A stretch of 15,132 bases of DNA from a virus (Duplodnaviria > Heunggongvirae > Uroviricota > Caudoviricetes), in IMG/VR virus record IMGVR_UViG_2627853771_000002; one strand, written 5' to 3'. A model generated the notes under the pieces. The model did no database searches and was not told where the DNA came from. It was given only the letters and a program-made list of their open reading frames with translations. Shown piece by piece: positions 1 to 12,410 of the stretch (position 1 is the first letter of the stretch; each line of letters opens with the position of its first letter). The translations under genes and the position numbers were made by a program.

Positions 1-798
1 TTAATGAACATTCGTCGCCGAAAACGAGTCTGTATCATTAGTGCGATGCAGTCTCTGCAAAGGATCTTGTTGATAAAATTGGCAGAAACGTTGCCACAAT
101 GAAGGGAAACGAGGAGCAAAAAGTTCTGGGGCGCTAAAGAAATATTCAGAAAGTACGGCAAAACATTCAGCAGGATCACTGGCAGCATAAGCATCAATGC
201 TCGCCGCATTCTCGCCAACCAATTCGATTTCTTCCTGAATGTTGTTCATTGCAGCATGAAGATCGTGTTCCCAGCCAGCAACCTCACGCAACGGAATAAA
301 GGGAACTCCGCTGGCGCGATCGCCGTTACGGGTGTCCAGCTTATGAGCGACTTCATGAATAATCAGGTTAAAACCAGAAGCATCAAAAGAATCTTGTATA
401 TCCAACCAGTTCAAAACGATAGGCCCTTGCTGCCAGCTCTGACCTGACTGAACAATACGTTGGTTATGCACCAGACCGATATCGTCTTCCCATTCATCAT
501 CGACCACAAATGGCGCAGGATAAATTAAGACTTCATGAAAACCATCCAGCCATTCCAGTCCTAACTCCAGAACGGGTAGGCAAAATAGAAGTGCTATCCG
601 GCAGCTTCTTAATGAATCCAGTTCAAAGCCCTGTAAAGGAACAAGCCGCTTTTGCTGTAAAAAACGTTCGGCAAGAGTGACTAATTTGCTTTGTTCCTGT
701 TCCGTCAGACCCGTTAAAAGGGGGATCGATAGTGCTTCCTGCCAGGGAAGGGCAGTTTGATGTGCTGATTCTTGTACTTTCCAGGGCCACTTAATCAT
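1..798 (-). CDS. mtfA: MtfA-like zinc-dependent peptidase (Mlc titration factor A), complete
   Basis: Minus-strand ORF 1..837; likely start is the ATG at 798-796 giving MIKWPWK..., stop TAA at 3-1. Contains an HExxH metallopeptidase motif (HEVAH). Sequence recalled as E. coli MtfA/YeeI; not searched. Confidence 0.85.
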
Positions 799-891
799 CG
801 TTTTGCTCGCAAACTCGTCACTTGAACAAAATTGCACGGACAGGGACTGTTAAAATGCCAAATTTCCTGGCATCATGGCAACCATCTGAAC

Positions 892-981
892 GGAGAGATG
901 CCGGAGCGGCTGAACGGACCGGTCTCGAAAACCGGAGTAGGGGCAACTCTACCGGGGGTTCAAATCCCCCTCTCTCCGCCA
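892..981 (+). tRNA. serU: tRNA-Ser, anticodon CGA
   Basis: GGAGAGA...TCTCTCC acceptor stem, discriminator G and terminal CCA; anticodon loop CUCGAAA gives anticodon CGA; long variable arm typical of class II tRNA-Ser; TTCAAATCC T-loop. Folded by eye. Confidence 0.9.
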
Positions 982-1028
982 CTATTCAAACACTTACAGC
1001 ATTCCCTTTCAGTGACCTGCATCCCGAT

Positions 1029-1062
1029 GAGAAAAATTGAGAAAATCCACTGAGAAAAATTC
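1029..1062 (+). repeat. Three direct copies of GAGAAAA(A)T between the tRNA and the integrase gene; candidate integrase arm-type binding sites
   Basis: gagaaaaatt at 1029-1038, gagaaaatcc at 1039-1048, gagaaaaatt at 1053-1062, lying 48-81 bp past the tRNA 3' end and just beyond the integrase stop. Confidence 0.3.
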
Positions 1063-1093
1063 TAGCGCCGAAGCATGCTCCGACGCCAAAGAA

Positions 1094-2068
1094 TCATCTC
1101 ATTTTCTTGTTCAACGTGGGGCTGATTTTAACTTTCCTGTCGTAAACAAGTACCTGTGATTCTGTCTTATGACCACTGAATTTTTGCTTATCCCTGCCAG
1201 ATCCTTCATAGTCTGAGATCCCTTTAGCCTTTAGATCATGGAAGGTGCAATCAAGTGGCCTACCAAGTTCTTCAGAAGCCGCGTTTCTCGCTTTTCTCCA
1301 TGCTTCATTAAATCCCTTGTATGAATAACGCTCACCATACATTGTCCTGATAACAGGGCCATCCTGTCCCCATTCCCTGCAAATATCCACAGCCGCACTA
1401 AGACGCTCAGTCCAGGCTTTGATCTGTTTAATACCAGTTTTACCTTGCTGTATGAAAATTCCTTTATCAAGAATCTGATTCCAGTTCATTTTAAGAACAT
1501 CAGATACCCTTGCAGCGCAAAGATACGCAATTTCCATCGCGGCTTTAACTGCAGGTGTCGCATGAGTGAAGATAGCTATGTACTCTTCATCAGTTATGTA
1601 GCGGTCGCGCTGGGGTTTAGGAAACTTATCGACACCAACACACGGATTACCTGGTACATAACCACGCTGATAACCCCAGCGGTATACACGAGACATTGAA
1701 CTATGCTCGTGATTAGCCTGAACACGGCTTCTTTTACCACGTGCATCCATGTAGCGTCGGACGTGTTCTGGTTTAATGGCCTTTGCTTCTGCATCGCCGA
1801 AAACCGCTAACAAGTATTTTTCATGTGCCAGGTAATCTTTTTGTGTCCTGGGGGCAAGGTCTGCATAGTCAGCACTATTTAAAAATTTTTTCCACAATTG
1901 TTGAAAGGTGAGTAGTTTTTTTCGACCTTCAACGACTTTCTCGTAAGCTAACCAAACCTCCGCTTTAGAAGCGTTTGCTGGGGCTAGATTCTCGGTAGTA
2001 CCTCCTGGCTTCCAGTAGTAACCGGAAGGGCGGAAAAACACACCCTTCGGCATCCACTCATTCAGCAT
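1094..2068 (-). CDS. Tyrosine-type site-specific recombinase (phage integrase)
   Basis: Minus-strand ORF of about 324 aa; C-terminal region carries an integrase-like motif (FHDLKAKGISDY). It ends 113 bp from the tRNA 3' end and reads toward it, the usual prophage arrangement. Start taken as ATG at 2068-2066 (TTG at 2071 is also possible). Confidence 0.85.
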   Translation of the reverse strand: MLNEWMPKGVFFRPSGYYWKPGGTTENLAPANASKAEVWLAYEKVVEGRKKLLTFQQLWKKFLNSADYADLAPRTQKDYLAHEKYLLAVFGDAEAKAIKPEHVRRYMDARGKRSRVQANHEHSSMSRVYRWGYQRGYVPGNPCVGVDKFPKPQRDRYITDEEYIAIFTHATPAVKAAMEIAYLCAARVSDVLKMNWNQILDKGIFIQQGKTGIKQIKAWTERLSAAVDICREWGQDGPVIRTMYGERYSYKGFNEAWRKARNAASEELGRPLDCTFHDLKAKGISDYEGSGRDKQKFSGHKTESQVLVYDRKVKISPTLNKKMR

Positions 2069-2216
2069 CAATCACATCTTGGGATACAGACGCTTGGATA
2101 ATATCTGCTTCGCTATAGTCGCCCCGCATAACCAGAAAACGAGCCTCATCGGAGCAGAGGTAATCAACTGCCCCATCAAATTTCCCCTTGCTGGTTGGTT
2201 TGGTTACGTTGCTCAT
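2058..2216 (-). CDS. Small hypothetical protein (52 aa) in the excisionase position upstream of the integrase
   Basis: ATG at 2216-2214 preceded by GGTGGA; translation MSNVTKPTSKGKFDGAVDYLCSDEARFLVMRGDYSEADIIQASVSQDVIDAE. Its start overlaps the upstream stop as ATGA and its end overlaps the integrase start. Below the 60-aa cutoff of the ORF track. No recognisable Xis motif. Confidence 0.4.
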   Translation of the reverse strand: MSNVTKPTSKGKFDGAVDYLCSDEARFLVMRGDYSEADIIQASVSQDVIDAE

Positions 2217-2347
2217 GCTGTCCACCATTCAATAAACATGCAGATACCAACGGTTACTACGGCAATCAGCACCCAGCAGATCACATCTAACAGGGCGGCG
2301 AGCCGACGCAGGGTGTATTTGCTGTAATTCTCAGGTTCAAAATTCAT
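2213..2347 (-). CDS. Small single-pass membrane protein (44 aa)
   Basis: ATG at 2347-2345 preceded by GGAGG; translation MNFEPENYSKYTLRRLAALLDVICWVLIAVVTVGICMFIEWWTA with a hydrophobic C-terminal half. ATGA overlap with the ParB-like stop and with the next ORF's start. Confidence 0.4.
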   Translation of the reverse strand: MNFEPENYSKYTLRRLAALLDVICWVLIAVVTVGICMFIEWWTA

Positions 2348-3129
2348 TGCGCCTCCCCAAGCACCCAGCGCAGAGCCTCGGCATATTCGCCACTGGCATC
2401 TTCGAGTGCTTTTGTAATTTCTTTGCGGGTTTTCAGGCGCGGCTTTGCATCACCGAGGATCTGACGCTGACGCCGAGCTTTTTCATGGCCCGTGGTGCCG
2501 GCGGTCGCTGTCTCGATCTGCTTGACCTTCTCTCGTTGCTCTTCGGGTTTAAGCGATGCCAACTGACGCGCCTGGGTAACAGTGACCGTTCCGGACTCCA
2601 CTGCATCGCGAACAGCTTGGGTGGCATCCAGCAGTGACAGAGTTGCGCGTACGGTCTGGACACTCACGCCAAACATCAGCGCTAAATCATCCTCATCGTG
2701 CCCGCGCTCCAGCGCATCAGCCATTTTCTTTGCTCGGCCTAGCGGCGTATCTGCCTGGCGGATTTCGTTAGCACTTACCATCGCCTGCGCCATGCGAATG
2801 GCAGAGCCACGTTTAGGGACTCCCGGAACCAGTAACGGTTCTTTGCCCAATTTTGACAGACGCTTATTGGCTTCCAGTGTATGGCGCACACGCTGGCGAC
2901 CATCAACCACACAAGACAGCCCTGTTTCCGGGTCTTTCCAGACGATAATCGGCTCAAGAACGCCCTGGTCCATGATGTTCAGCACCATTGCCTCGCTGAT
3001 AGGCAGGTGGATACGCTCATCGTAAAGCGGGTGCGTTTTGTCGGTAACCAGGTGCAGTTTTTCAGGTTCAAACGCTAAAACGTTCGTTTTGCCACTCGCG
3101 CCATATACCAGCTTTGAGTCTTTAGCCAT
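2344..3129 (-). CDS. ParB-like nuclease-domain (ParB/Srx fold) protein
   Basis: 261-aa ORF with a ParB N-terminal-domain-like core (EPIIVWKDPETGLSCVVDGRQRVRH) and an HTH-like segment (DDLALMFGVSVQTVRATL). Start ATG at 3129 shares its A with the upstream gene's TGA (TGATG). Confidence 0.7.
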   Translation of the reverse strand: MAKDSKLVYGASGKTNVLAFEPEKLHLVTDKTHPLYDERIHLPISEAMVLNIMDQGVLEPIIVWKDPETGLSCVVDGRQRVRHTLEANKRLSKLGKEPLLVPGVPKRGSAIRMAQAMVSANEIRQADTPLGRAKKMADALERGHDEDDLALMFGVSVQTVRATLSLLDATQAVRDAVESGTVTVTQARQLASLKPEEQREKVKQIETATAGTTGHEKARRQRQILGDAKPRLKTRKEITKALEDASGEYAEALRWVLGEAQ

Positions 3130-3428
3130 CAGAGAGCCTCCACGTTACGGAAGCTGGTGGGGCAAATTGCCTTCAAATCGCGCATAGCCTCTAGAACATG
3201 CATATTTGTGCGATTCTTGGTGTGTCGCTCGGTCAGGCGATCACACTCTTTCGCCCATGATTTGACCTCTGCAAGAAGGGCGTCACGTTCGGTGCGCGTC
3301 TGGCGCAGAGCTACATTCGAAACATCGAGGACGGTAGCCAGTTCCTTGATGATTGCTGCCTGTTCTGGTGGCATAGTTTTGGCTATTTCGTACGCCTGTT
3401 TAATCAGTTGTTTTGCTGTCTTAGCCAT
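3129..3428 (-). CDS. Hypothetical protein (99 aa), first gene of the leftward operon
   Basis: ATG at 3428-3426 preceded by GGAGAA; translation MAKTAKQLIKQAYEIAKTMPPEQAAIIKELATVLDVS.... The ORF track extends to 3479 only through a TTG. No family recognised. Confidence 0.55.
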   Translation of the reverse strand: MAKTAKQLIKQAYEIAKTMPPEQAAIIKELATVLDVSNVALRQTRTERDALLAEVKSWAKECDRLTERHTKNRTNMHVLEAMRDLKAICPTSFRNVEAL

Positions 3429-3721
3429 CTTTTGTTCTCCATCTGACGCTCTGCAACGCGTAAATTTAGGGTGCAGCAACCCAACCCATGAGAATGGGTG
3501 AATAGCTGGTTAAAATTTCTTGCTGATGGGGGACCGCCACTGCAATGGCGGTACGTTAGTTCTCCACACAACACAGAAGAGCACCTGCGGCCGCAAATCC
3601 GCTCGGGCGGATTGTGTTAGGGCACGTCACTCGGTGGTGCTCTGATGTCTTTTGTAAAAGGGCGAACCAGAAACAATGGGGAAACTGGTGCCGCCAAGAT
3701 GACATAGTCCATCAGACTCAC

Positions 3722-3772
3722 TTGATGTTAGGTTATGCCTAATGTCATGTCAATAGGCTTAGCCTAATGTTG
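3722..3772. promoter_or_regulatory. OL-like operator pair with an overlapping leftward promoter
   Basis: Two palindromes: ttaggt-tat-gcctaa (3728-3742) and ataggc-tta-gcctaat (3753-3768). On the minus strand a -35 TTGACA (complement of 3748-3753), a 17-bp spacer and a -10 TAACAT (complement of 3725-3730) overlap them. Confidence 0.5.
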
Positions 3773-3781
3773 GTCGGCGGT

Positions 3782-3807
3782 CAAAAAAAATCCCGCATAA
3801 GCGGGAT
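3782..3807 (-). terminator. Rho-independent terminator ending the repressor operon (hairpin plus T-run on the minus strand)
   Basis: Stem ATCCCGC/GCGGGAT (3790-3807) with loop ATAA; an A8 run at 3782-3789 on the plus strand is a T8 run after the hairpin on the minus strand. Lies between the native stop of the nuclease-like gene (3838) and the operators. Confidence 0.5.
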
Positions 3808-3837
3808 TTGTGTGAAATAAAGCTAGTGTTTTTATGA

Positions 3838-3882
3838 TTATGGACGACGCTTTCTGAAATTCTCATCATTCTGTACATATTG
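3838..3882 (-). other. Orphaned native 3' end (14 codons plus stop) of the IS1-interrupted nuclease-like gene
   Basis: Joining the reading frame of CDS 4660-5769 across the target duplication continues ...L-QYVQNDENFRKRRP-stop, with TAA at 3840-3838. Confidence 0.45.
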
Positions 3883-3891
3883 TAAAGAATC
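3883..3891. repeat. IS1 target-site duplication, left copy (TAAAGAATC)
   Basis: The 9 bp immediately left of the IS1 end are identical to 4660-4668. Confidence 0.85.
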
Positions 3892-3946
3892 GGTGATGCT
3901 GCCAACTTACTGATTTAGTGTATGATGGTGTTTTTGAGGTGCTCCA

Positions 3947-4222
3947 GTGGCTTCTGTTTCTATCAGCTGTCCCTCCTGTTCAGCTACTGACGGGGTGGTG
4001 CGTAACGGCAAAAGCACCGCCGGACATCAGCGCTATCTCTGCTCTCACTGCCGTAAAACATGGCAACTGCAGTTCACTTACACCGCTTCTCAACCCGGTA
4101 CGCACCAGAAAATCATTGATATGGCCATGAATGGCGTTGGATGCCGGGCAACTGCCCGCATTATGGGCGTTGGCCTCAACACGATTTTACGTCACTTAAA
4201 AAACTCAGGCCGCAGTCGGTAA
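3947..4222 (+). CDS. insA: IS1 InsA
   Basis: 91-aa [43 protein letters not shown]..., recalled as IS1 InsA. Confidence 0.9.
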
Positions 4223-4644
4223 CCTCGCGCATACAGCCGGGCAGTGACGTCATCGTCTGCGCGGAAATGGACGAACAGTGGGGCTATGTCGGGGCTAAAT
4301 CGCGCCAGCGCTGGCTGTTTTACGCGTATGATAGTCTCCGGAAGACGGTTGTTGCGCACGTATTCGGTGAGCGCACTATGGCGACGCTGGGGCGTCTTAT
4401 GAGCCTGCTGTCACCCTTTGACGTGGTGATATGGATGACGGATGGCTGGCCGCTGTATGAATCCCGCCTGAAGGGAAAGCTGCACGTAATCAGCAAGCGA
4501 TATACGCAGCGAATTGAGCGGCATAACCTGAATCTGAGGCAGCACCTGGCACGGCTGGGACGGAAGTCGCTGTCGTTCTCAAAATCGGTGGAGCTGCATG
4601 ACAAAGTCATCGGGCATTATCTGAACATAAAACACTATCAATAA
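4141..4644 (+). CDS. insB: IS1 InsB (expressed as an InsAB' fusion by -1 frameshifting)
   Basis: 167-aa [28 protein letters not shown]... in the -1 frame relative to insA, overlapping its 3' end. Confidence 0.85.
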
Positions 4645-5769
4645 GTTGGAGTCATTACCTAAAGAATCAAGGATTAAACCTGAAATCCTTAATACATCCT
4701 CGGGATGTTCAATGAAAATACGATTGTTATCATGTTCAAGTCCGGCTCTTTTAATTTCATTACCGGTTATTTCATTGATATCAATTGGTAACTGTATGTT
4801 TGAGCGATTCTTCTTGTCATAATAGCGAACCAGCCAGCGGTTTGTTTTTCCTTGGAAAAGAATAGAGTAATAGGACTCTGTATCTTTGGCTTGAAGTTCG
4901 TATGCAGGGCCTATAATAGAACAGATTTTTTCAAATAAAATTCTTTCATTATAGGTTGTTACTATGTTGGGGTTCTCTGCATCGACAATATCTGCGCGCT
5001 CATCAATTACATTATTTTCAGTTACATCAGCAGGGGATTCTAATTCAGGAATAGATGTTCTTGATGAAAGACCAGAAACAACCATTTCACTTACTGACCT
5101 CTCTACGGCCTGCCTCACCAATGGAGTTATTGTTTCTATAAATCTTTGATTTAATTGACGACCAATATTTGCTCGTCCTGCAACATATCTAACAAATTCA
5201 TGATCTACTTCCCGAAGGCTTGTACTCACGACTTTAACAAATGCAGAAATATAAACACTCTCTTCTGCAAGGGTTCTTAGGGCCTCTGGTTTGAATTTGT
5301 CATGGCGGAATCTAAATAATTGCTCAGCATCAGAATCTTTAATGTCATCCATCATGATTCGTAAAAATGGCGTTGAATCCATTATATTTTTTTCATTGAG
5401 ATCCGTAAAAAAGCGCCATTCAATTCCATTAGTAATTGCTGATATTGTCACCTCAGGAGTAGAATTAAAATACCTAGATAATTGAGGACAATGGTTGTCC
5501 ATTTTTTCTTTACAACCTTTGGCCTCAATAAACATAACGGGAACACCTTGGCAGAATAGAGCATAATCTACACGCTCACCCACTTTCACACCAGGGAAGT
5601 CCGCACCATATTCAGCTTTGACTTTTTGCGGATCATATGCGTTAAAGCCTAGGATGTCCAAAAAAGGAAGTATCAAAGCCTGCTTGGTTGTCTCTTCCGT
5701 TGTGCAGTGTTCTCTAACATTTTTAACATGTTCAATGTGATTTTTAAGACGTACTTTGAAGTTTTCCAT
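4579..5769 (-). CDS. Repressor-linked protein with an HsdR-N-like PD-(D/E)xK nuclease N-terminal domain and an uncharacterised C-terminal domain; 3' end replaced by IS1 sequence
   Basis: ATG at 5769 (MENFKVRL...) after GGAGGA. The first 130 aa or so follow the pattern I associate with the type I restriction HsdR N-terminal nuclease fold (D...VDYALF...[10 protein letters not shown]...QLSRY...TNG). Codons 4660-5769 are native; 4579-4659 are read from the IS1 right end. Lies downstream of, and on the same strand as, the repressor gene, inside the operator-bounded immunity region. Confidence 0.6.
4660..4668. repeat. IS1 target-site duplication, right copy (TAAAGAATC)
   Basis: Identical to 3883-3891. 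Confidence 0.85.
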
Positions 5770-5939
5770 GCATCCTCCATGCAAAGTGAAAACCTGCTGT
5801 TAAATCAAAGCAAGTCACAATCCCGGATAGGCTTCATACAAGCCAATCCCCCACAGGGATTGAGTTATGCAAGCGAATCAATCTCAGAGCTTTTAACATG
5901 TATGGAGCTTAGAGATATTGTCCGTTAGACCATATAAGC

Positions 5940-6416
5940 TTAAGCTCTGGCTTTCGTTTGTTTTTTTCCATCTTCCTCCTGCTCTGCCCATCTCCTTATC
6001 TTCATCTCTAATGAGTCTAAATATGCTTTAGCATCGCTATCTACCCAGCCAGGTATACGCTGTCCTTGCTCTAAGAGGACAAAATCAATGATAGCCTTTT
6101 TTTCTCTCGAAGCCTTATTATAGAGCTCGTCAATAGAACCATTTTTAACTATGGGATCTGTTGCGGGCTCACATGTATCAGTTAGCGGGTATCCCTTTAG
6201 TCCCCAGTGCTCGGGGCCCACAACATCAGAAAAGTAGTTCCAAAGCTCTGGTAGCTTCTCTTTCGATATGGAGCCTTTATTGATCCAGTCATGGATTGAT
6301 GGGGGTTTTATTTTGAAATGACGTGCGATTTCCGCCTTACTCTTGGCAGAACCTATTGAAAGCTTCTTGTCTATGGCCTGCTCGATCGCTCGGCCCAATT
6401 CTTTACCACTAAGCAT
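5940..6416 (-). CDS. CI/RacR-like helix-turn-helix repressor with no S24 peptidase domain
   Basis: 158-aa ORF with an N-terminal HTH-like segment (LSGKELGRAIEQAIDKKLSIGSAKSKAEIARHFKIKPPSIHDW); no Ala-Gly/Ser-Lys autocleavage features seen. Divergent from a Cro/YdaS-like gene across an operator-containing region. Confidence 0.7.
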   Translation of the reverse strand: MLSGKELGRAIEQAIDKKLSIGSAKSKAEIARHFKIKPPSIHDWINKGSISKEKLPELWNYFSDVVGPEHWGLKGYPLTDTCEPATDPIVKNGSIDELYNKASREKKAIIDFVLLEQGQRIPGWVDSDAKAYLDSLEMKIRRWAEQEEDGKKQTKARA

Positions 6417-6443
6417 TGCCTAATAATCCTCATAACCTATAGC

Positions 6444-6486
6444 TTAGGCAATTCCTATTGATTGTTTATTAGGCTTAGCCTAATAT
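6444..6486. promoter_or_regulatory. OR-like operator region with a rightward promoter
   Basis: Perfect 8+3+8 palindrome TATTAGGC-TTA-GCCTAATA at 6467-6485 and a degenerate copy at about 6444-6459. -35 TTGATT (6458-6463), 17-bp spacer, -10 TAATAT (6481-6486); the palindrome sits in the spacer. Confidence 0.55.
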
Positions 6487-6809: not shown

Positions 6810-7262
6810 ATGAACCTCAAAGAAGTCGTGAAATCTATGTGCAAAGCATATCCAGGTGGGCGCGAAGCAATGGCTGGCGCACTGGGAATGACGGTGACGC
6901 AGTTTAACAACAACCTTTACGAGAAAAACGGCTGTCGTTTCTTCGAAGTCAGCGAACTGGAAGCGATGGAGGACATCTCGAATACATCTCACCTGGCTGA
7001 ATATTTTGCCCGCCGTCGTGGTGCTCTGCTGGTGGATGTTCCGCACCTGGAAGAACTGGACCGCGTGGACTTGTTTAGCCGGGCAATGCGTACCTCTGCC
7101 GCCAGGGGGCAGGTTGATCAGATTATCGAACAGGCGCTTGAAGATGGCGTTATTGAAAGGCACGAGGCCGAAGAAATCATGGTGCATCACCGCCGTCACC
7201 TGGCAGCTCGTGAAGAAGAGATTGCCGCAATCATCACGCTTTTTTCACGCAAAAAGAAGTGA
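6810..7262 (+). CDS. CII-like / YdaT-like regulatory protein
   Basis: 150 aa from the ATG at 6810 (AAAGGAG five nt upstream), directly after the YdaS-like gene as in Rac-type prophages. Family assignment is from position and general resemblance only. Confidence 0.45.
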   Translation: MNLKEVVKSMCKAYPGGREAMAGALGMTVTQFNNNLYEKNGCRFFEVSELEAMEDISNTSHLAEYFARRRGALLVDVPHLEELDRVDLFSRAMRTSAARGQVDQIIEQALEDGVIERHEAEEIMVHHRRHLAAREEEIAAIITLFSRKKK

Positions 7263-7289
7263 CGCCAGCGAGTTGCAGCTCCTGGCGTC

Positions 7290-8129
7290 GTGGCGTGTCG
7301 TTATCAGTGGAGATTACTAACGCATGAACAGTTTATCAACACAATACCGCAGGTCGCAACTTGTAGCGCGGCCAGTTCCTGGTGGAGCAGGGCCGGTGCA
7401 GTTCGTGTAGAGCCATTCGTTGGTGGTGGGTCGGTATTCCTGAACAGCGAAAAGCACGCAGATTACCTGCTGGCGGACGTTAACCCGGACCTGATTAATC
7501 TGTATCAGATGTTAGCGGTCGTGCCGGATGAAGTGGAATTGAAGGCCCGCTGGATGTTCGAGCACATGCGGTCACCAGAGCGCTATGAGCTGATCCGTTC
7601 CGAGTTCAACTCTCAGACGCTGGATGCTACTGAACGCGCAGCTGCATTCCTGTATCTCAACCGGCATTGCTTCAATGGTCTGATGCGCTACAACCAGGCG
7701 AACAAGTTCAATGTGGGCTGGGGAGGCTACAAGGCTCCGTATTACCCGATGGATGAGATGAAAGCCTTCGCGGCTATGGCGCATAACTGCGTATTCATGA
7801 CGGCTGATTACCGCCGGACAATCAGCCTGGCCGGGAAAGGGGATGTGGTTTACTGCGATCCGCCTTACGAACCGATGCCGGGAACAACCGGATTCACCGC
7901 CTACGCCGCTGGTGGTTTTAACTGGGAGAACCAGGTAGACCTGGCGAAGCAATGCGTATCAGCCTTTCACCGTGGGGCTCGGGTAGTGATTTCTAACTCA
8001 TCTGCACCGAAGGTTCTCGACCTGTACCGGGAGCATGGTTTTAACCTGCAATTCATCAACGCGCGCCGTTCGATCTCCTGCAAAAGCAGTACGCGGGAAG
8101 TCGCAAAAGACGTTGTAGCGATCCTTTAA
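7290..8129 (+). CDS. DNA adenine methyltransferase (Dam family, N6-adenine)
   Basis: Motif I EPFVGGGSVFLN and motif IV CDPPYEP; overall resemblance to E. coli Dam (FLYLNRHCFNGLMRYN, ISNS). The only in-frame start after the upstream stop is the GTG at 7290; the nearest ATG (7324) is out of frame, so the start is uncertain. Confidence 0.75.
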   Translation: MACRYQWRLLTHEQFINTIPQVATCSAASSWWSRAGAVRVEPFVGGGSVFLNSEKHADYLLADVNPDLINLYQMLAVVPDEVELKARWMFEHMRSPERYELIRSEFNSQTLDATERAAAFLYLNRHCFNGLMRYNQANKFNVGWGGYKAPYYPMDEMKAFAAMAHNCVFMTADYRRTISLAGKGDVVYCDPPYEPMPGTTGFTAYAAGGFNWENQVDLAKQCVSAFHRGARVVISNSSAPKVLDLYREHGFNLQFINARRSISCKSSTREVAKDVVAIL

Positions 8130-8138
8130 GGGGGCTAA

Positions 8139-8981
8139 ATGAAACTGACTTTACCATTTCCACCGAGCGTAAATAGTTACTGGCGCGCCCCGAGCAAGGG
8201 ACCGCTGAAAGGCAGGCATCTGGTAAGCGAGACAGGGCGCAAGTTCCAGCAGGCAGCGAGAGCGGCGATTATTGAGCAACTGCGGGCCGTTCCCCGGCCA
8301 TCCTCAGATCTGGCCGAGGTTCACATAAACGTTGTTGAGGGCGCGGGGCTTGAGCTTGATCCTGATGATGATTCACAGGTTCTTAAAGCGATTGGTGGCG
8401 GTCGCCTGCTTAATATTGTCACCTTTACTAAGTCAGGGACTTACACTCCAACTAAAGGGACGAAAAGAGTGCGGGTGAAAGTTTGGGGAGCGGGGGGAGG
8501 TGGCCAGAATGCTCCAGTTAGTGTGGGCGCATCTGGAGGTTGTGCTGGTGGATTTTCGGAAGGGTTATTTAATATTTCTGATAACGAAACTATATCTGTG
8601 ACGATAGGTACTGGTGGCAGTGCTGTTGCTGCTGGTGTCTCGTCTAAAGGCGGGAATGGTGGTGATACAAGGTTCGGGAGTTTAATCTCAGCTACTGGAG
8701 GGAGTGGTGGCGGGGCTACAGTTCCTGCTGGAGGTATCGGAAGTGGCGGGAACATTTTAAATATTACTGGCGAAATATCTCAAGGTGGTCTGTATTATGG
8801 TTCTGATGCTTTTATTGGCGGGGCTGGAGGATCTGCATTTTCATCAACGGGTGGCAATGGCCACTTCGGTAGTTCTGGCGATGATGGCGGTTTCCCCGGC
8901 TCAGGTGGTGCCGGGGGGAATGGTAACTATTCATCAGGAAAAGGAGCGAATGGTTTAGTTTACCTTGAAGAGTTTTCCTGA
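8139..8981 (+). CDS. RusA-like N-terminal region fused in frame to a glycine-rich, fibre-like C-terminal region
   Basis: N-terminus MKLTLPFPPSVNSYWR... resembles the RusA resolvase N-terminus (ITLPWPPSNNRYYR), and ...GGGRLLNIVTFT resembles the RusA C-terminus. From about aa 110 the protein is a GGxGG-rich tract of about 170 aa. ATG at 8139 follows AAGGGGG. Confidence 0.5.
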   Translation: MKLTLPFPPSVNSYWRAPSKGPLKGRHLVSETGRKFQQAARAAIIEQLRAVPRPSSDLAEVHINVVEGAGLELDPDDDSQVLKAIGGGRLLNIVTFTKSGTYTPTKGTKRVRVKVWGAGGGGQNAPVSVGASGGCAGGFSEGLFNISDNETISVTIGTGGSAVAAGVSSKGGNGGDTRFGSLISATGGSGGGATVPAGGIGSGGNILNITGEISQGGLYYGSDAFIGGAGGSAFSSTGGNGHFGSSGDDGGFPGSGGAGGNGNYSSGKGANGLVYLEEFS

Positions 8982-10051
8982 TTATTTTTGCTTTGAGCGT
9001 CCGCCCTTATTTTTGCTCTAATTTTAATTAGTGGCTTGTCTATTAATATTACACAAACGATCCCAAGTGCAATTGATATTGGGTAGCCTAATAAAAAGAT
9101 GGATAAGCCACGATTTTCACCACCAATAGCAAGCCATGCTAGAAATCCACCAAAATATTGACAAAGAAAAATTGGATAGGCCAGGTCACCAAACCACTTG
9201 AGTATTTTCTCAAGATGTATGTTTGTCTTTATTTTTAATAATACCAGGGTTGTAAACAATGCTATTACATTATTGGTGTAGTAAAGTATTATGTTGTACT
9301 GACCTAATGGATTAATTGTATATAAATGCCAATTGGTAATAAAAATCCCGATGCAAATAAATGTTATTAAAAAAGCTTTGTGTGGAGAAAGATACATAGC
9401 TTTGAACTTTCTATGGGCAAAATAACCCAGAGAACCCATGCTAAAAGGAAGTGTTGCAGCAAGGAATGGGAAATACGCCATATCAAAAGAATGGTGTACT
9501 ACATATACGTAAGCATGATAAAGCAGTGAAAGCAGAATCGACGTAATGGCTGTAAATTTATTTCGGGCTATGAAAAGCCACAATAAAAAATAACATGTTA
9601 TCTCAACACCCACTGACCATGATGATGTGACTATTCTGAATCTATTACCATCAATAGCAAAGTGATAAATGGATGAAAAGGCACCGAATGGATTTGCTAC
9701 AGCATTATCAGAAAGGAAAGCCCAGGGGAAGATTAAGAGGTTTCCTAATAAATCTCCAGGTAAGAAATTGCCTGTCCAGTTTGAGTGGAATTCCTTTGCG
9801 GATGGAATTAATTTTATAATAAGAAAGCCCATGACGAGAAAAAATATATATGCCGGGAATAACCTCAGTATTCTATTTTTCCAAAACATAGAGAAGTTGA
9901 ACTTGTATGTTTCATGCAAAATGTATGTTATTAAAAAACCACTAATAACATAGAAGCAATTCACTGCAAAGTTGCCAAGTGCAGGTATGCGAGCCGTTAA
10001 GTGAAAAGCAATGACGCACGATGCCAAAAAAAACCTTATTAGGCCAAGCAT
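8960..10051 (-). CDS. Acyltransferase-3 family integral membrane protein (O-antigen O-acetyltransferase-like, Oac/OafA type)
   Basis: 363-aa very hydrophobic ORF with motifs typical of the family (RFFLASCVIAFH, FYVISGFLITY); strongly AT-rich relative to its flanks. Its 3' end overlaps the convergent glycine-rich ORF by about 22 bp. Confidence 0.75.
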   Translation of the reverse strand: MLGLIRFFLASCVIAFHLTARIPALGNFAVNCFYVISGFLITYILHETYKFNFSMFWKNRILRLFPAYIFFLVMGFLIIKLIPSAKEFHSNWTGNFLPGDLLGNLLIFPWAFLSDNAVANPFGAFSSIYHFAIDGNRFRIVTSSWSVGVEITCYFLLWLFIARNKFTAITSILLSLLYHAYVYVVHHSFDMAYFPFLAATLPFSMGSLGYFAHRKFKAMYLSPHKAFLITFICIGIFITNWHLYTINPLGQYNIILYYTNNVIALFTTLVLLKIKTNIHLEKILKWFGDLAYPIFLCQYFGGFLAWLAIGGENRGLSIFLLGYPISIALGIVCVILIDKPLIKIRAKIRADAQSKNNQENSSR

Positions 10052-10314
10052 TATTTTATCTCCGCGCCAATATCGCGCATTTTATTTATTACATTGTTAA
10101 GTTGCTCATCAGACAGAACAAGCTGAGCTGCAATATAAAACAGTATGTGTCTTGACATTACCCTGGGGCTCTCTCCGCCAGTGTATTTCCGCCATTGGCT
10201 ATCGCTGGCTACACCTGCGAGCCCTGCCATTTGGTTTCCGGAGTAATTTAGTGCGGATTTCAGTCTGGCTAAATCTTCCTGCGTTGGAGGGGTGTATTTA
10301 TTTATTAAAATCAT
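10051..10314 (-). CDS. Small XRE-type HTH protein co-transcribed with the acyltransferase
   Basis: 87 aa from the ATG at 10314 (track ORF starts at a GTG at 10338). HTH-like segment LARLKSALNYSGNQMAGLAGVASDSQWRKYTGGESPR. Its stop overlaps the acyltransferase start (TAATG). Confidence 0.5.
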   Translation of the reverse strand: MILINKYTPPTQEDLARLKSALNYSGNQMAGLAGVASDSQWRKYTGGESPRVMSRHILFYIAAQLVLSDEQLNNVINKMRDIGAEIK

Positions 10315-10415
10315 TCTCTTATTTAACCGTTTAAACACGTAAGGCGATGTTAGCCCTGAAGGGGCGGGGCGTCAATCTTAATTGCTTCATTGAAAAGATG
10401 AAGACAGGAACAGGT

Positions 10416-12410
10416 ATGGACAAAAGATATAATACCGGCAATCCAAGACCTTCAAATAGCATGAAGGATCTGAATGATAACGCCCTGGCGTACGATGATT
10501 TCCTGAACAGCGAAAGCGATACTTTTATAGATCGTTTTGGTAACGCCCAGGATACGATAATTGGGGCTACTAAAAAAATGGCAGCTGCTACCGACGCTGT
10601 TATTGATGAAGCCCGCCAAAACCTGATCCCTCTCAGCCGGCAGTACATGACGCTGGCGGCGGCGCAGGCGGATATTGCGAATATTCCGGCAGGTTCAACA
10701 ACCTATGTCCGCAGTCAGGACGGAAGCTCTCTGGCCGATGAGTATATCAACCTCGCTGGAACGCTGCAGCCAACCGGACGGCGGATGGTTCGTGACGACT
10801 ACGCATACCAGGTATCGCCAGACAGCGTGACCCTGGCAGCATATGATCCGGAGACTTCCCGCGTGGCTCCATTTTTAAATACAAGCGGCAGATTAATTCA
10901 AATCGGTCCTGACGGAAAATATTACGAACTTTTAACCCAACAAGAATCCGAACTCTATGCGCTGGGCCGGGAGGGTTCTATACCGCAGTTTATTGGCGGT
11001 GAAAAAGTGTGGCGGATGACGGTTGATTCAACCACAAACCAGATCGTTGAAGCTTATACGGTTGGTGGGAAGCACTGGATTTACTCAGACGGTGGCCTGG
11101 TAGCTGTTAATAACGGAAATGGCGGTGGTGGTGGCGACGATGATGCCAACCAGCTCCCTGAGTATGGACTTCATTTGTCAGGGTCTACTGTGTACCCCTA
11201 CTCAGAGACAGTGCCTGTATGTTTTATCTTTGTGACTGCTGGGCAATCCAACGCTCGAGGATATTGTCCTGACGCCGATCAAACCATTGTCGCAGCAACG
11301 CCGATATATCCTGATAACGCTTTCATGCTCAGCGGCGGGGTTAGGCGTACAGGGACACGCAGCACTACTCTGGTGCCACTGGTTGAGGCAGTAAGTGGGA
11401 CAGATAAAGAAACGGCCGCAAGCGGCCTCGCGAACACCTTCATTCGCGATATGGCTGCAGCTACCGGAATCATGCCGCGCACGCTATCAATCGTATGTGC
11501 GCAGTCTGGTCAGGCTTACGAGTACCAGAAACGGGGTAACCAGGTATATCAGTATCTGCTCGATTCAATCGAAGACTGCGTAACGGCCTGTAAAGCACGC
11601 GGCTGGCTGCCGATTGTTCTCTGCGTTGACTGGATGCAGGGAGAGTCCGACGAGGACTGGTCAGGATTACGAGAAGGAATGTATGAATCACGGATGAGGC
11701 AGTACCAGAGACAAATCACCAGCGACATCATCGCAAGAACGGGTCAAAACGAACCGCCGATTATCGCCATTACCCAGCTGGGGTATGTCAATGACGGGCA
11801 TGGTGCATTTACAGGCCAGTACGCGCGACTGGCGTCGACGCGATTGCACGGAAAAGAGCAATTCAGGCTGGTCAATAGTTTGTACCAGTACGATTTTATT
11901 TCAGACGGTCTGCACTTGACGTGTGCGGGCCAGAACCGGCGCGGAGCAGCTGTGGCGAGAGCGCTTCTCCAGGAGTGGTTTACGAGCGGCTGGTCAGGGA
12001 TGGTTCCGACCAGTTTCGTGTGGAACTCACCCACGCAGATACAAATCAATGTCCCAGCGTATACGAACCTGGTGCTGGACACGACTACGATCAACACCTC
12101 CGGTCTGGCCAATTACGGCTTTAGCTACACGGATGAGACTGGTGCTCCACCTGCTATATCGAGCATCGCGATCAGCTCGGACGGCAAGGGCGTGCTGATT
12201 AACCTGGCGACCGCCCCCTCTGGACGTTTTGGGCGCGTTTCCTATGCGACAGCAGAAAACCCACTTCAGAGCGGCGCATCTGTAAAACCTTCCGGGCGGA
12301 CTCTTGGTGCAAGAGGGTGTGTTCGATCTTCCGCTGGAATCATATGGGTGTATGACACATCCGTGACTCTTTACGACTGGCTCCCCGCTTTTCGTATTAA
12401 CGTTTTCTGA
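10416..12410 (+). CDS. Tail-fibre/tailspike-like protein with an internal SGNH/SASA-type carbohydrate esterase domain
   Basis: Esterase block motifs in order: GQSN (VTAGQSNARGY, nt about 11241-11252), QGESD (DWMQGESDED, nt about 11631-11651) and DxxH (SDGLHLT, nt about 11904-11918). A Gly/Asp linker (NGNGGGGGDDD) precedes the domain. Start taken as the ATG at 10416 (AGGAACAGG upstream); the maximal ORF begins at 10347. Confidence 0.55.
   Translation: MDKRYNTGNPRPSNSMKDLNDNALAYDDFLNSESDTFIDRFGNAQDTIIGATKKMAAATDAVIDEARQNLIPLSRQYMTLAAAQADIANIPAGSTTYVRSQDGSSLADEYINLAGTLQPTGRRMVRDDYAYQVSPDSVTLAAYDPETSRVAPFLNTSGRLIQIGPDGKYYELLTQQESELYALGREGSIPQFIGGEKVWRMTVDSTTNQIVEAYTVGGKHWIYSDGGLVAVNNGNGGGGGDDDANQLPEYGLHLSGSTVYPYSETVPVCFIFVTAGQSNARGYCPDADQTIVAATPIYPDNAFMLSGGVRRTGTRSTTLVPLVEAVSGTDKETAASGLANTFIRDMAAATGIMPRTLSIVCAQSGQAYEYQKRGNQVYQYLLDSIEDCVTACKARGWLPIVLCVDWMQGESDEDWSGLREGMYESRMRQYQRQITSDIIARTGQNEPPIIAITQLGYVNDGHGAFTGQYARLASTRLHGKEQFRLVNSLYQYDFISDGLHLTCAGQNRRGAAVARALLQEWFTSGWSGMVPTSFVWNSPTQIQINVPAYTNLVLDTTTINTSGLANYGFSYTDETGAPPAISSIAISSDGKGVLINLATAPSGRFGRVSYATAENPLQSGASVKPSGRTLGARGCVRSSAGIIWVYDTSVTLYDWLPAFRINVF

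Follow-up and report, generated by a model that had tools for sequence, protein, structure and literature searches.

The 15,132-nucleotide (nt) stretch held in IMG/VR as IMGVR_UViG_2627853771_000002, the whole of which we call the window, is a piece of Escherichia coli chromosome in which mtfA and a tRNA-Ser (CGA) gene are followed by a prophage remnant. The leftward run of genes at positions 1094–3428, comprising a 99-amino acid (aa) gene, a ParB-like gene, two small open reading frames (ORFs) and an integrase gene, is the promoter-distal end of a repressor-controlled early-left operon; the prophage to which it belongs is lambdoid, of Klebsiella type and heavily decayed. Overall, we consider it highly probable that this region is an operon end scarred by a deletion and carrying a ParB-like early-gene cassette.

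Re-reading of the window confirmed five minus-strand ORFs at the coordinates given in an earlier note on this DNA: the 99-aa gene (p99; 3129–3428; PHROG 15091), the ParB-like gene (261 aa; 2344–3129; PF17762, PHROG 1033), a 44-aa gene (p44; 2213–2347; PHROG 2936) encoding a single-pass membrane peptide, a 52-aa ORF (p52; 2058–2216) matching positions 1–51 of the 102 positions of PHROG 28696, and the integrase gene (1094–2068 from its own ATG; PF00589). The same five coding sequences, with the same boundaries, are annotated in an identical E. coli locus by the NCBI Prokaryotic Genome Annotation Pipeline (PGAP), and the ORFs, coordinates and overlaps of the earlier note stand. Successive genes meet at TGATG (p99/ParB, a 1-nt overlap), ATGA (ParB/p44), ATGA again (p44/p52) and an 11-nt overlap (p52/integrase; 2058–2068). 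The first three overlaps exceed chance: the 1-nt overlap is kept wherever p99 occurs, the ParB/p44 ATGA in all loci where p44 occurs, and the ATGA at the 3′ end of p44 is common to all alleles of the gene that follows it. The junction between the p52 stop and the integrase start was seen only in the deletion allele described below. Predicted pairing with the anti-Shine-Dalgarno sequence was strong for ParB (−9.3 kcal/mol) and p44 (−11.4 kcal/mol), moderate for p99 (−6.4 kcal/mol) and weak for p52 (−4.9 kcal/mol), against an average of −2.2 kcal/mol over all minus-strand ATGs of the window; at −0.7 kcal/mol, the integrase ATG has no Shine-Dalgarno sequence. The proposal of a translationally coupled leftward operon leading into the integrase thus holds for the tight packing and for the first three, conserved overlaps, but not for the last, which is a deletion joint and not evolved coupling. 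Conservation across relatives points firmly to p99, the ParB-like gene and p44 as real genes.

The joint lies at 2061–2062 (minus strand), between GCTGAA and TGAGTGG, with 2 nt (AA) of microhomology. By blastn, window positions 1–2062 are 99% identical to the integrase side of the prophage (L002) that occupies this site in E. coli SCU-308, with homology ending 24 nt before the int start codon of that prophage, and positions 2061–3518 are homologous to Klebsiella phage vB_VIPKPNMC05 (L004), in which the ORF behind the 44-aa gene runs on to 102 aa (106 aa from an upstream ATG). When window, L002 and L004 were compared base by base, only the AA was shared at the joint. An IMG/VR prophage (L029) has both flanks intact, and relative to it the window has a gap of 2,651 bp that holds the C-terminal half of the 102-aa gene, an Ead/Ea22-like gene, an HNH gene, a gene with a dATP/dGTP-pyrophosphohydrolase domain (annotated DUF550 in relatives), a 92-aa gene and a gene for a 75-aa DUF4224 protein, which matches PHROG 1266 ‘excisionase’ (E = 1e-29). 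A tblastn search of the window found no excisionase, no C-terminal half of the 102-aa gene and no other gene of the L029 gap. The same joint was found in one uninterrupted alignment, at 99.8–100% identity, in nine of 5,426 complete E. coli genomes, indicating that it is real and inherited. Two sister loci that we inspected carry insertion sequence (IS) elements IS3 or ISKpn26 in place of the IS1 of the window; the deletion must therefore predate these insertions and is not an assembly artefact. Together, the alignments indicate that a single illegitimate-recombination deletion joined codon 52 of the 102-aa gene to int codon 9, apparently taking with it the rest of the 102-aa gene, some four ea-type genes, the DUF4224 excisionase gene and the native int start with its ribosome-binding site. 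The 52-aa ORF, its TGA, the integrase ATG and the 11-nt overlap are all products of this joint.

The earlier note had placed the 52-aa product in the position of an excisionase. Comparison with relatives instead identifies the ORF as the truncated 5′ half of the 102-aa gene, and not, on this evidence, as an excisionase. It is 100% identical to residues 1–52 of the L004 and L029 proteins, the latter of which matches PHROG 28696 over positions 1–102 (E = 1e-61), and its TGA lies in int-derived sequence, formed out of frame from the native int codons N-E (AAT GAG). Among the 13 loci of our p44-seeded search that carry a p52-type allele, 11 have the gene at full length and two are truncated, these being the deletion allele. 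An upstream ATG at 2228 (MVDSM...) was considered as the p52 start and rejected: it has no Shine-Dalgarno sequence, and the prefix that it would add is the 3′ end of p44 in another frame. As this prefix precedes every downstream allele, the ATGA start at 2216 is taken as the natural start of the parent gene. In intact relatives the 102-aa gene lies 2.2–2.5 kb away from int, and the position directly upstream of int is held by a DUF4224/PHROG 1266 excisionase gene in all 12 loci with a native integrase. Only three loci have no DUF4224 gene; all three share the same joint, and in them the integrase begins at residue 9. Literature searches combining DUF4224 and excisionase found no papers. One might still propose p52 as a new excisionase or recombination directionality factor whose translation is coupled to that of the integrase, given that it sits directly upstream of int with an 11-nt overlap, is small and acidic (net charge −5) and is annotated as a coding sequence by PGAP. 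Its derivation from the first 52 residues of a longer protein, the stop codon supplied by int, the recognised excisionase family (E = 1e-29) adjoining int in relatives and the integrase ATG without a Shine-Dalgarno sequence leave that proposal a negligible chance. Neither p52 nor the full-length version of the gene matched any Pfam or NCBIfam family, and the sole PHROG match of p52 was 28696, with no excisionase family among its matches.

The integrase itself is clearly recognisable (PF00589, 40.2 bits against a cut-off of 27.1) and corresponds to residues 9–330 of the native 330-aa protein at 99.7% identity, with native codons 1–8 missing: its N-terminus reads MLNEW where the native protein has MGRKRAPGNEW. 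The ATG at 2068 is an out-of-frame triplet in ...ATT GAT GCT... of the 102-aa gene. Besides its first eight codons, the gene has lost the ribosome-binding site that belonged to it and any promoter near xis; in lambda, the int promoter sits in the xis region. Synthesis of the integrase would then require read-through from the PL-like promoter and accidental reinitiation, for example at the ATG at 2053, 4 nt past the TGA. As no excisionase is encoded, excision should be impossible, and the prophage would be locked in place. Loss of the excisionase would also explain the stable fixation of the remnant at tRNA-Ser in one E. coli lineage.

In contrast to the 52-aa ORF, the 44-aa gene shows the conservation and excess of synonymous change that the earlier note had proposed as a check on both small ORFs. 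We collected 37 distinct DNA and 31 distinct protein sequences, all of 44 codons and all overlapping the ParB stop by ATGA. Variable sites at first, second and third codon positions numbered 10/10/21, and the ratio of non-synonymous to synonymous substitution rates (dN/dS) was 0.39–0.45 in frame, whereas the other frames gave 0.61 and 1.20. Although protein identity falls to 36% across homologues, these keep a hydrophobic core (19-residue Kyte–Doolittle mean 2.2–2.6) and a C-terminal IEW motif; in the window the top 19-residue mean is 2.58, at residues 19–37, and the description of the product as a single-pass membrane peptide is upheld by this span and its conservation. The match to PHROG 2936 is full length (44/44 aligned, E = 2.9e-26), and no Pfam or NCBIfam family was matched. 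In a locus search seeded with an alignment of p44 sequences, counting loci with enough flanking sequence, a ParB gene stood immediately upstream of p44 in 77 of 77. Taken together, coding pattern and context argue strongly that p44 is a real protein-coding gene, strictly tied to ParB. A fusion of the two was looked for among longer ParB homologues (P0070, P0009, P0098 and P0103) and rejected, since their C-terminal extensions are unrelated, providing no example of a fused ParB–membrane peptide.

The ParB-like protein has an N-terminal ParB/Srx nucleotide-binding fold, a ParB helix-turn-helix (HTH) domain and a short C-terminal helical tail, and the assignment made in the earlier note is sound in this respect. 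The HTH_ParB domain (PF17762) scored 43.2 bits against a cut-off of 22.6 (E = 4.6e-11, residues 128–218), PHROG 1033 ‘ParB-like partition protein’ was matched at E = 5e-73, and phmmer aligned residues 47–233 with Spo0J (1vz0, E = 1.5e-5) and Noc (E ~1e-4). The best NCBIfam matches fell far under their cut-offs (PRTRC ParB, 44 bits against 279; TIGR00180 parB_part, 25.2 against 58.45; Noc TIGR04285, 25 against 315). A Foldseek search with the AlphaFold2 model returned Spo0J, ParB, Noc or KorB structures for all of the top 30 Protein Data Bank matches, each at probability 1.0, with low global TM-scores as expected of two flexibly joined domains. Box II reads GRQR (GERR elsewhere), and G77, R78 and R80 are invariant in a five-sequence alignment that includes 51%-identical Burkholderia homologues; Box I is LEP for LQP and Box III ANEIR for ENLQR. 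A 40-residue N-terminal extension is strongly conserved within the family, the dN/dS of the gene is 0.13 and a C-terminal dimerisation domain was not detected by Pfam scan. We regard the protein as an orphan of the ParB/Noc/KorB type. Its full-length, 51%-identical homologues are gp58 of Burkholderia phage phiE125, gp68 of phi1026b and gp35 of KS9; the phi1026b gene belongs to the early-right operon, with methylase genes on one side and replication genes on the other, the KS9 gene is close to that for the repressor, and there is no p44 at either locus. Very distant ParB relatives have been reported in lambdoid early regions, with the remark that their function may have changed significantly (PMC12315714), and orphan ParB-fold proteins are enriched on prophages, the fold being able to bind CTP, ATP or GTP (PMC12704722).

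Relatives of the ParB-like protein are encoded on 411 stretches in IMG/VR, and megablast showed that window positions 2210–3584 move as a block among Klebsiella and E. coli phages with differing integrases and immunity regions. The cassette is present in only some related phages, amid ea/moron-like accessory genes of the early-left operon, and its three proteins each match a PHROG at full length (p99, 15091; ParB-like, 1033/25613; p44, 2936). Across a comparison set of 86 ParB loci, the gene upstream of ParB was usually p99, with alternatives, mostly joined by an 8-nt overlap, that encode a 66-aa protein sharing the N-terminal ~50 residues of p99, a 70–76-aa zinc-ribbon-like protein, a 111-aa HTH protein or a 77-aa protein. 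Downstream of ParB stood p44 in ~60 loci, and elsewhere genes for a 358-aa DGQHR (DndB-like) protein, a 67-aa protein or Ead-like proteins. This pattern identifies ParB as the conserved core of an accessory cassette that is mosaic and common among the temperate phages of Enterobacteriaceae, with an interchangeable gene in front. We also observed that the DGQHR protein, which takes the p44 position in ~15 of the 86 loci (L039, L027, L044 and others) with its start overlapping the ParB stop, itself belongs to a ParB-fold family. Two records labelled ‘Stenotrophomonas phage’ (OM816834 and OM816835) carry the ParB gene at 97% protein and 94% DNA identity, which is unexpected for the stated host and suggests either a wrong host label or a prophage of Klebsiella or E. 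coli as the source.

The p99 protein matches PHROG 15091 over its full length (E = 3e-63), and its 154 homologues are almost all exactly 99 aa and named mostly from Klebsiella or Klebsiella-group bacteria. Its AlphaFold2 model (mean predicted local distance difference test (pLDDT) score 82.5) has a short helix followed by one long helix (residues 21–88), and p99 is probably an oligomerising helical protein. A profile search of solved structures gave nothing significant (best E = 0.15), and there was no Pfam match above cut-off and no NCBIfam match. The idea that p99 is an obligate partner of ParB was rejected, the upstream gene being one of at least five unrelated alleles.

What the cassette does can be approached through the fold of its central protein. 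Working like KorB or Noc, the ParB-like protein would bind a specific DNA site through its HTH domain, and its nucleotide-gated N-terminal domain would self-associate or clamp, with DNA silencing or organisation as the outcome and not partition; p44 would sit in the membrane as an accessory whose synthesis keeps pace with that of the ParB-like protein. Taken from the fold, this working mode is plausible but tentative. Going further, the ParB-like protein and p44 could together make up a membrane-anchored DNA-binding module in two parts, analogous to Noc, which carries its membrane helix within the protein itself. The swappable upstream proteins (p99, its 66-aa relative, the zinc-ribbon protein and the 111-aa HTH protein are the candidates) would then have the part that KorA and TrbA play for KorB, in targeting or in locking the clamp. 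We consider this extension improbable as it stands; if true, the cassette would be a modular system by which the phage tethers or silences DNA soon after induction or infection.

Several observations weigh against the reading of a deletion-scarred operon end with a ParB-type cassette, or limit its detail. The ParB mechanism is drawn from fold homology only, and the AlphaFold2 model has a pLDDT of 71, which is moderate confidence. The positions required for hydrolysis in Myxococcus xanthus ParB, Q52 (Box I) and E93 (Box III), correspond to E59 and A120 here and vary in the family (A, E or T at the Box III position), and with the CTP-hydrolysis residues not conserved, clamp cycling may not apply. 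A repeat search confined to positions 2000–3900, and not extended to the rest of the phage or host genome, found no parS-like palindrome other than one at 3533–3552, which was rejected as a cognate ParB site because it is absent from 51 of the 86 ParB loci. On the side of the deletion, any one record covers at most 39% of the L029 segment, and the ea region is so highly mosaic that the exact content deleted from the true ancestor is not recoverable. An integrase without residues 1–8 might also still be active if translated.

Three other accounts of the cassette deserve consideration. The annotated identity of the protein as a ParB/RepB/Spo0J partition protein, with both a ParB N-terminal domain and a ParB HTH, together with the few phage-sized Klebsiella ‘plasmid’ records that carry the cassette, could suggest that it segregates a plasmid-like or replicating form of the phage. 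No parA gene adjoins it in any annotated neighbourhood that we examined, however, and a regular-expression search of the protein for the ParA-binding motif (L/F/I)G(K/R)G(L/F/I) found none; the score against TIGR00180 (25 bits against 58), the missing dimerisation domain, the lack of a parS-like palindrome in the region searched and the fact that the host phages integrate through a tyrosine integrase all make true partition very unlikely. The domain name that the earlier note took up would make the protein a nuclease. Some proteins of the ParB/Srx fold are nucleases, and the Pfam family of the fold was historically named in that way, but the best sequence and structure matches here are all to DNA-binding ParB, Noc and KorB proteins with the same HTH, and no nuclease family was matched in library searches; ‘nuclease domain’ is best treated as a historical fold name, and a nuclease role as highly improbable.

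The main alternative, which we regard as unlikely but stronger than either of these, is that the cassette (the ParB-like protein and p44, with or without p99) is directed at the host or at competitors and not at regulation of the phage's own genome. It would then serve host takeover, anti-defence or superinfection exclusion, perhaps by binding DNA of the host or incoming DNA and tethering or occluding it at the membrane. Its position among ea/moron-like accessory genes in only some related phages would suit such a role, as would the defence-type DGQHR/DndB-like protein that fills the p44 position elsewhere, and the much greater conservation of ParB than of its neighbours (dN/dS 0.13; 51% identity to Burkholderia homologues) fits a conserved external target. 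Anti-defence or phage–host roles have been suggested for some prophage-borne ParB-fold fusion proteins (PMC12704722). Against it, there is no experimental precedent for this family, Burkholderia phages hold the gene in an early-right operon amid replication and methylase genes and without p44, and PADLOC (E ≤ 0.1) returned no match for p99, ParB, p44, p52, the 106-aa reading of the L004 102-aa protein or the HSDR_N protein encoded upstream.

The upstream region suggests how the operon would be expressed. A putative PL-like sigma-70 promoter, as the earlier note supposed, is present at 3753–3725 (minus strand; TTGACA-17-TAACAT), with 10 of 12 consensus matches, and its putative function is in keeping with the flanking sites of form TAGG-N5-CCTA, TAGGTTATGCCTA at 3729–3741 and TAGGCTTAGCCTA at 3754–3766, which bracket it in the manner of operators. 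Five such sites were found in total, the other three lying in the intergenic region between the genes for a RacR-like repressor and a cro-like protein (6410–6482), at 6445, 6470 and, with one mismatch, 6410; TAGGCTTAGCCTA is identical at 3754 and 6470. Their occurrence at both the promoter and the immunity region supports a repressor-controlled, PL-like promoter for the operon and makes them candidate operators of the RacR-like repressor. In the lysogen, the repressor would hold the operon silent through these sites, and on derepression p99, ParB and p44 would be produced together from a single transcript. A terminator-like hairpin with a T run (3809–3788, minus strand) ends the upstream HSDR_N endonuclease gene just before the promoter; in the uninterrupted locus L001, the endonuclease coding sequence stops ~30 nt upstream of the hairpin. 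IS1 lies upstream of the promoter, which is not cut off from the operon genes.

Between the PL-like promoter and p99, the leader contains the 20-bp near-perfect palindrome at 3533–3552 (ACCGCCATTGCAGTGGCGGT, minus strand), found at the same offset in 35 of the 86 ParB loci. Its outermost pair varies in a compensatory manner (A...T to G...C), and it may form a hairpin in RNA or serve as a binding site for a protein. Rfam at gathering thresholds returned only the tRNA from the window, and a permissive scan of 1900–3950 gave sub-threshold noise only, so that neither nut-like sequences nor other known RNA elements were found. We also observed that the window, at ~3508–3555, is without the rdgC-like gene (~0.9 kb) that relatives carry between the PL region and the 99-aa gene (L029, 2670–3622; L003, 8902–9825), either a mosaic difference or a further deletion.

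The remainder of the element, which spans ~13.7 kb in strain 13P484A, is similarly reduced. The tRNA-Ser (CGA) gene (892–981, plus strand) beside mtfA, identified by ARAGORN, Rfam and the annotation of identical loci, is the prophage attachment site; for attR, the window contained no exact copy of the tRNA 3′ end exceeding 12 nt. The remnant keeps genes for the RacR-like repressor (5940–6416), a YdaS/Cro-like protein, a CII-like protein, a Dam methylase, a RusA N-terminus fused to a glycine-rich tail-fibre end, an acyltransferase and a tail-spike-like protein with a sialate O-acetylesterase (SASA) domain; the replication, lysis and most late genes are gone. IS1 (3892–4659), flanked by a 9-bp target duplication TAAAGAATC (3883–3891 and 4660–4668), sits in the 3′ end of the HSDR_N endonuclease gene (4579–5784) and alters the C-terminus of the product, which is 401 aa here and 384 aa in the uninterrupted locus; sister strains have IS3 or ISKpn26 in the same region. 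The ORF at 8139–8981 begins as a RusA-like protein (MKLTLPFPPSVNSYW...) and continues as a glycine-rich domain of tail-fibre type (PF21722), with the RusA part called a partial pseudogene by PGAP in identical loci. The ORF has the look of another large joint, the second in the remnant, where a deletion took out everything between rusA and the tail-fibre genes. Compared with L002 (11565–12687), a DUF4222 gene and a gene for an O-like HTH protein of the replication region are missing at 7262–7290, between the CII/YmfL-like and Dam methylase genes, and this would be a third deletion. The acyltransferase (PF01757) and a 687-aa protein with the SASA domain survive at 8960–12410 and may be morons for surface modification or what is left of a tail spike.

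By itself, the locus is a case of ordinary prophage decay that includes a cassette of a known, uncharacterised kind. It carries a lesson for annotation, in that a small ORF in the ‘xis position’ overlapping int is here a deletion scar, the excisionase having been lost. The new lead concerns a widespread orphan ParB-like early gene of temperate phages: in enterobacterial phages it is strictly linked to p44 and has a swappable upstream partner gene, an arrangement that suggests specific questions of protein interaction.

Among known systems, the closest layout is the end of the lambda early-left (PL) operon (ea/b genes, xis and int), which is likewise leftward, repressor-controlled and packed with small accessory genes whose stops and starts overlap, and which in intact relatives of the remnant finishes in xis–int beside the attachment site. 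The window differs from lambda in having no xis, no native int start and several ea genes fewer, in a RacR-like repressor with putative TAGG-N5-CCTA operators, and in that no N/nut was identified. The DUF4224/PHROG 1266 excisionase that fills the position upstream of int in intact relatives is absent from the window, and p52 has no similarity to it. Grounded cryptic prophages of E. coli of the Rac type are alike in keeping the immunity region, a few early genes and morons, with losses through deletions and IS elements, but the present remnant is of Klebsiella-type lambdoid origin and occurs in only nine of 5,426 complete E. coli genomes.

With small membrane peptides such as the type I toxins Hok and TisB and holin-like proteins, p44 shares a length of ~44 residues and one hydrophobic helix, but it has no significant sequence similarity to any of these, its PHROG holin match being weak (E = 0.0085). 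The earlier note likened it to Kil-type proteins; to our knowledge, lambda Kil is not a membrane protein. The ParB-like gene itself belongs to the same family as the orphan ParB-like genes of temperate phages, which are early genes of integrating phages without ParA (PMC12315714; PMC12704722; the Burkholderia phages), though the enterobacterial gene sits in the early-left operon, usually with p44 behind it, in contrast to the Burkholderia loci examined, which have no p44. Like KorB of plasmid RK2, Noc and the ParB/Spo0J clamps, the protein has the ParB/Srx fold, the Box II arginines and the HTH, and in common with KorB and Noc it does without a ParA partner; it differs from them in scores far below the family cut-offs, in its own N-terminal extension and in a short C-terminus with no recognised dimerisation domain. 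Unlike Noc, it has no amphipathic membrane helix, and a separate 44-aa membrane peptide is co-encoded with it instead.

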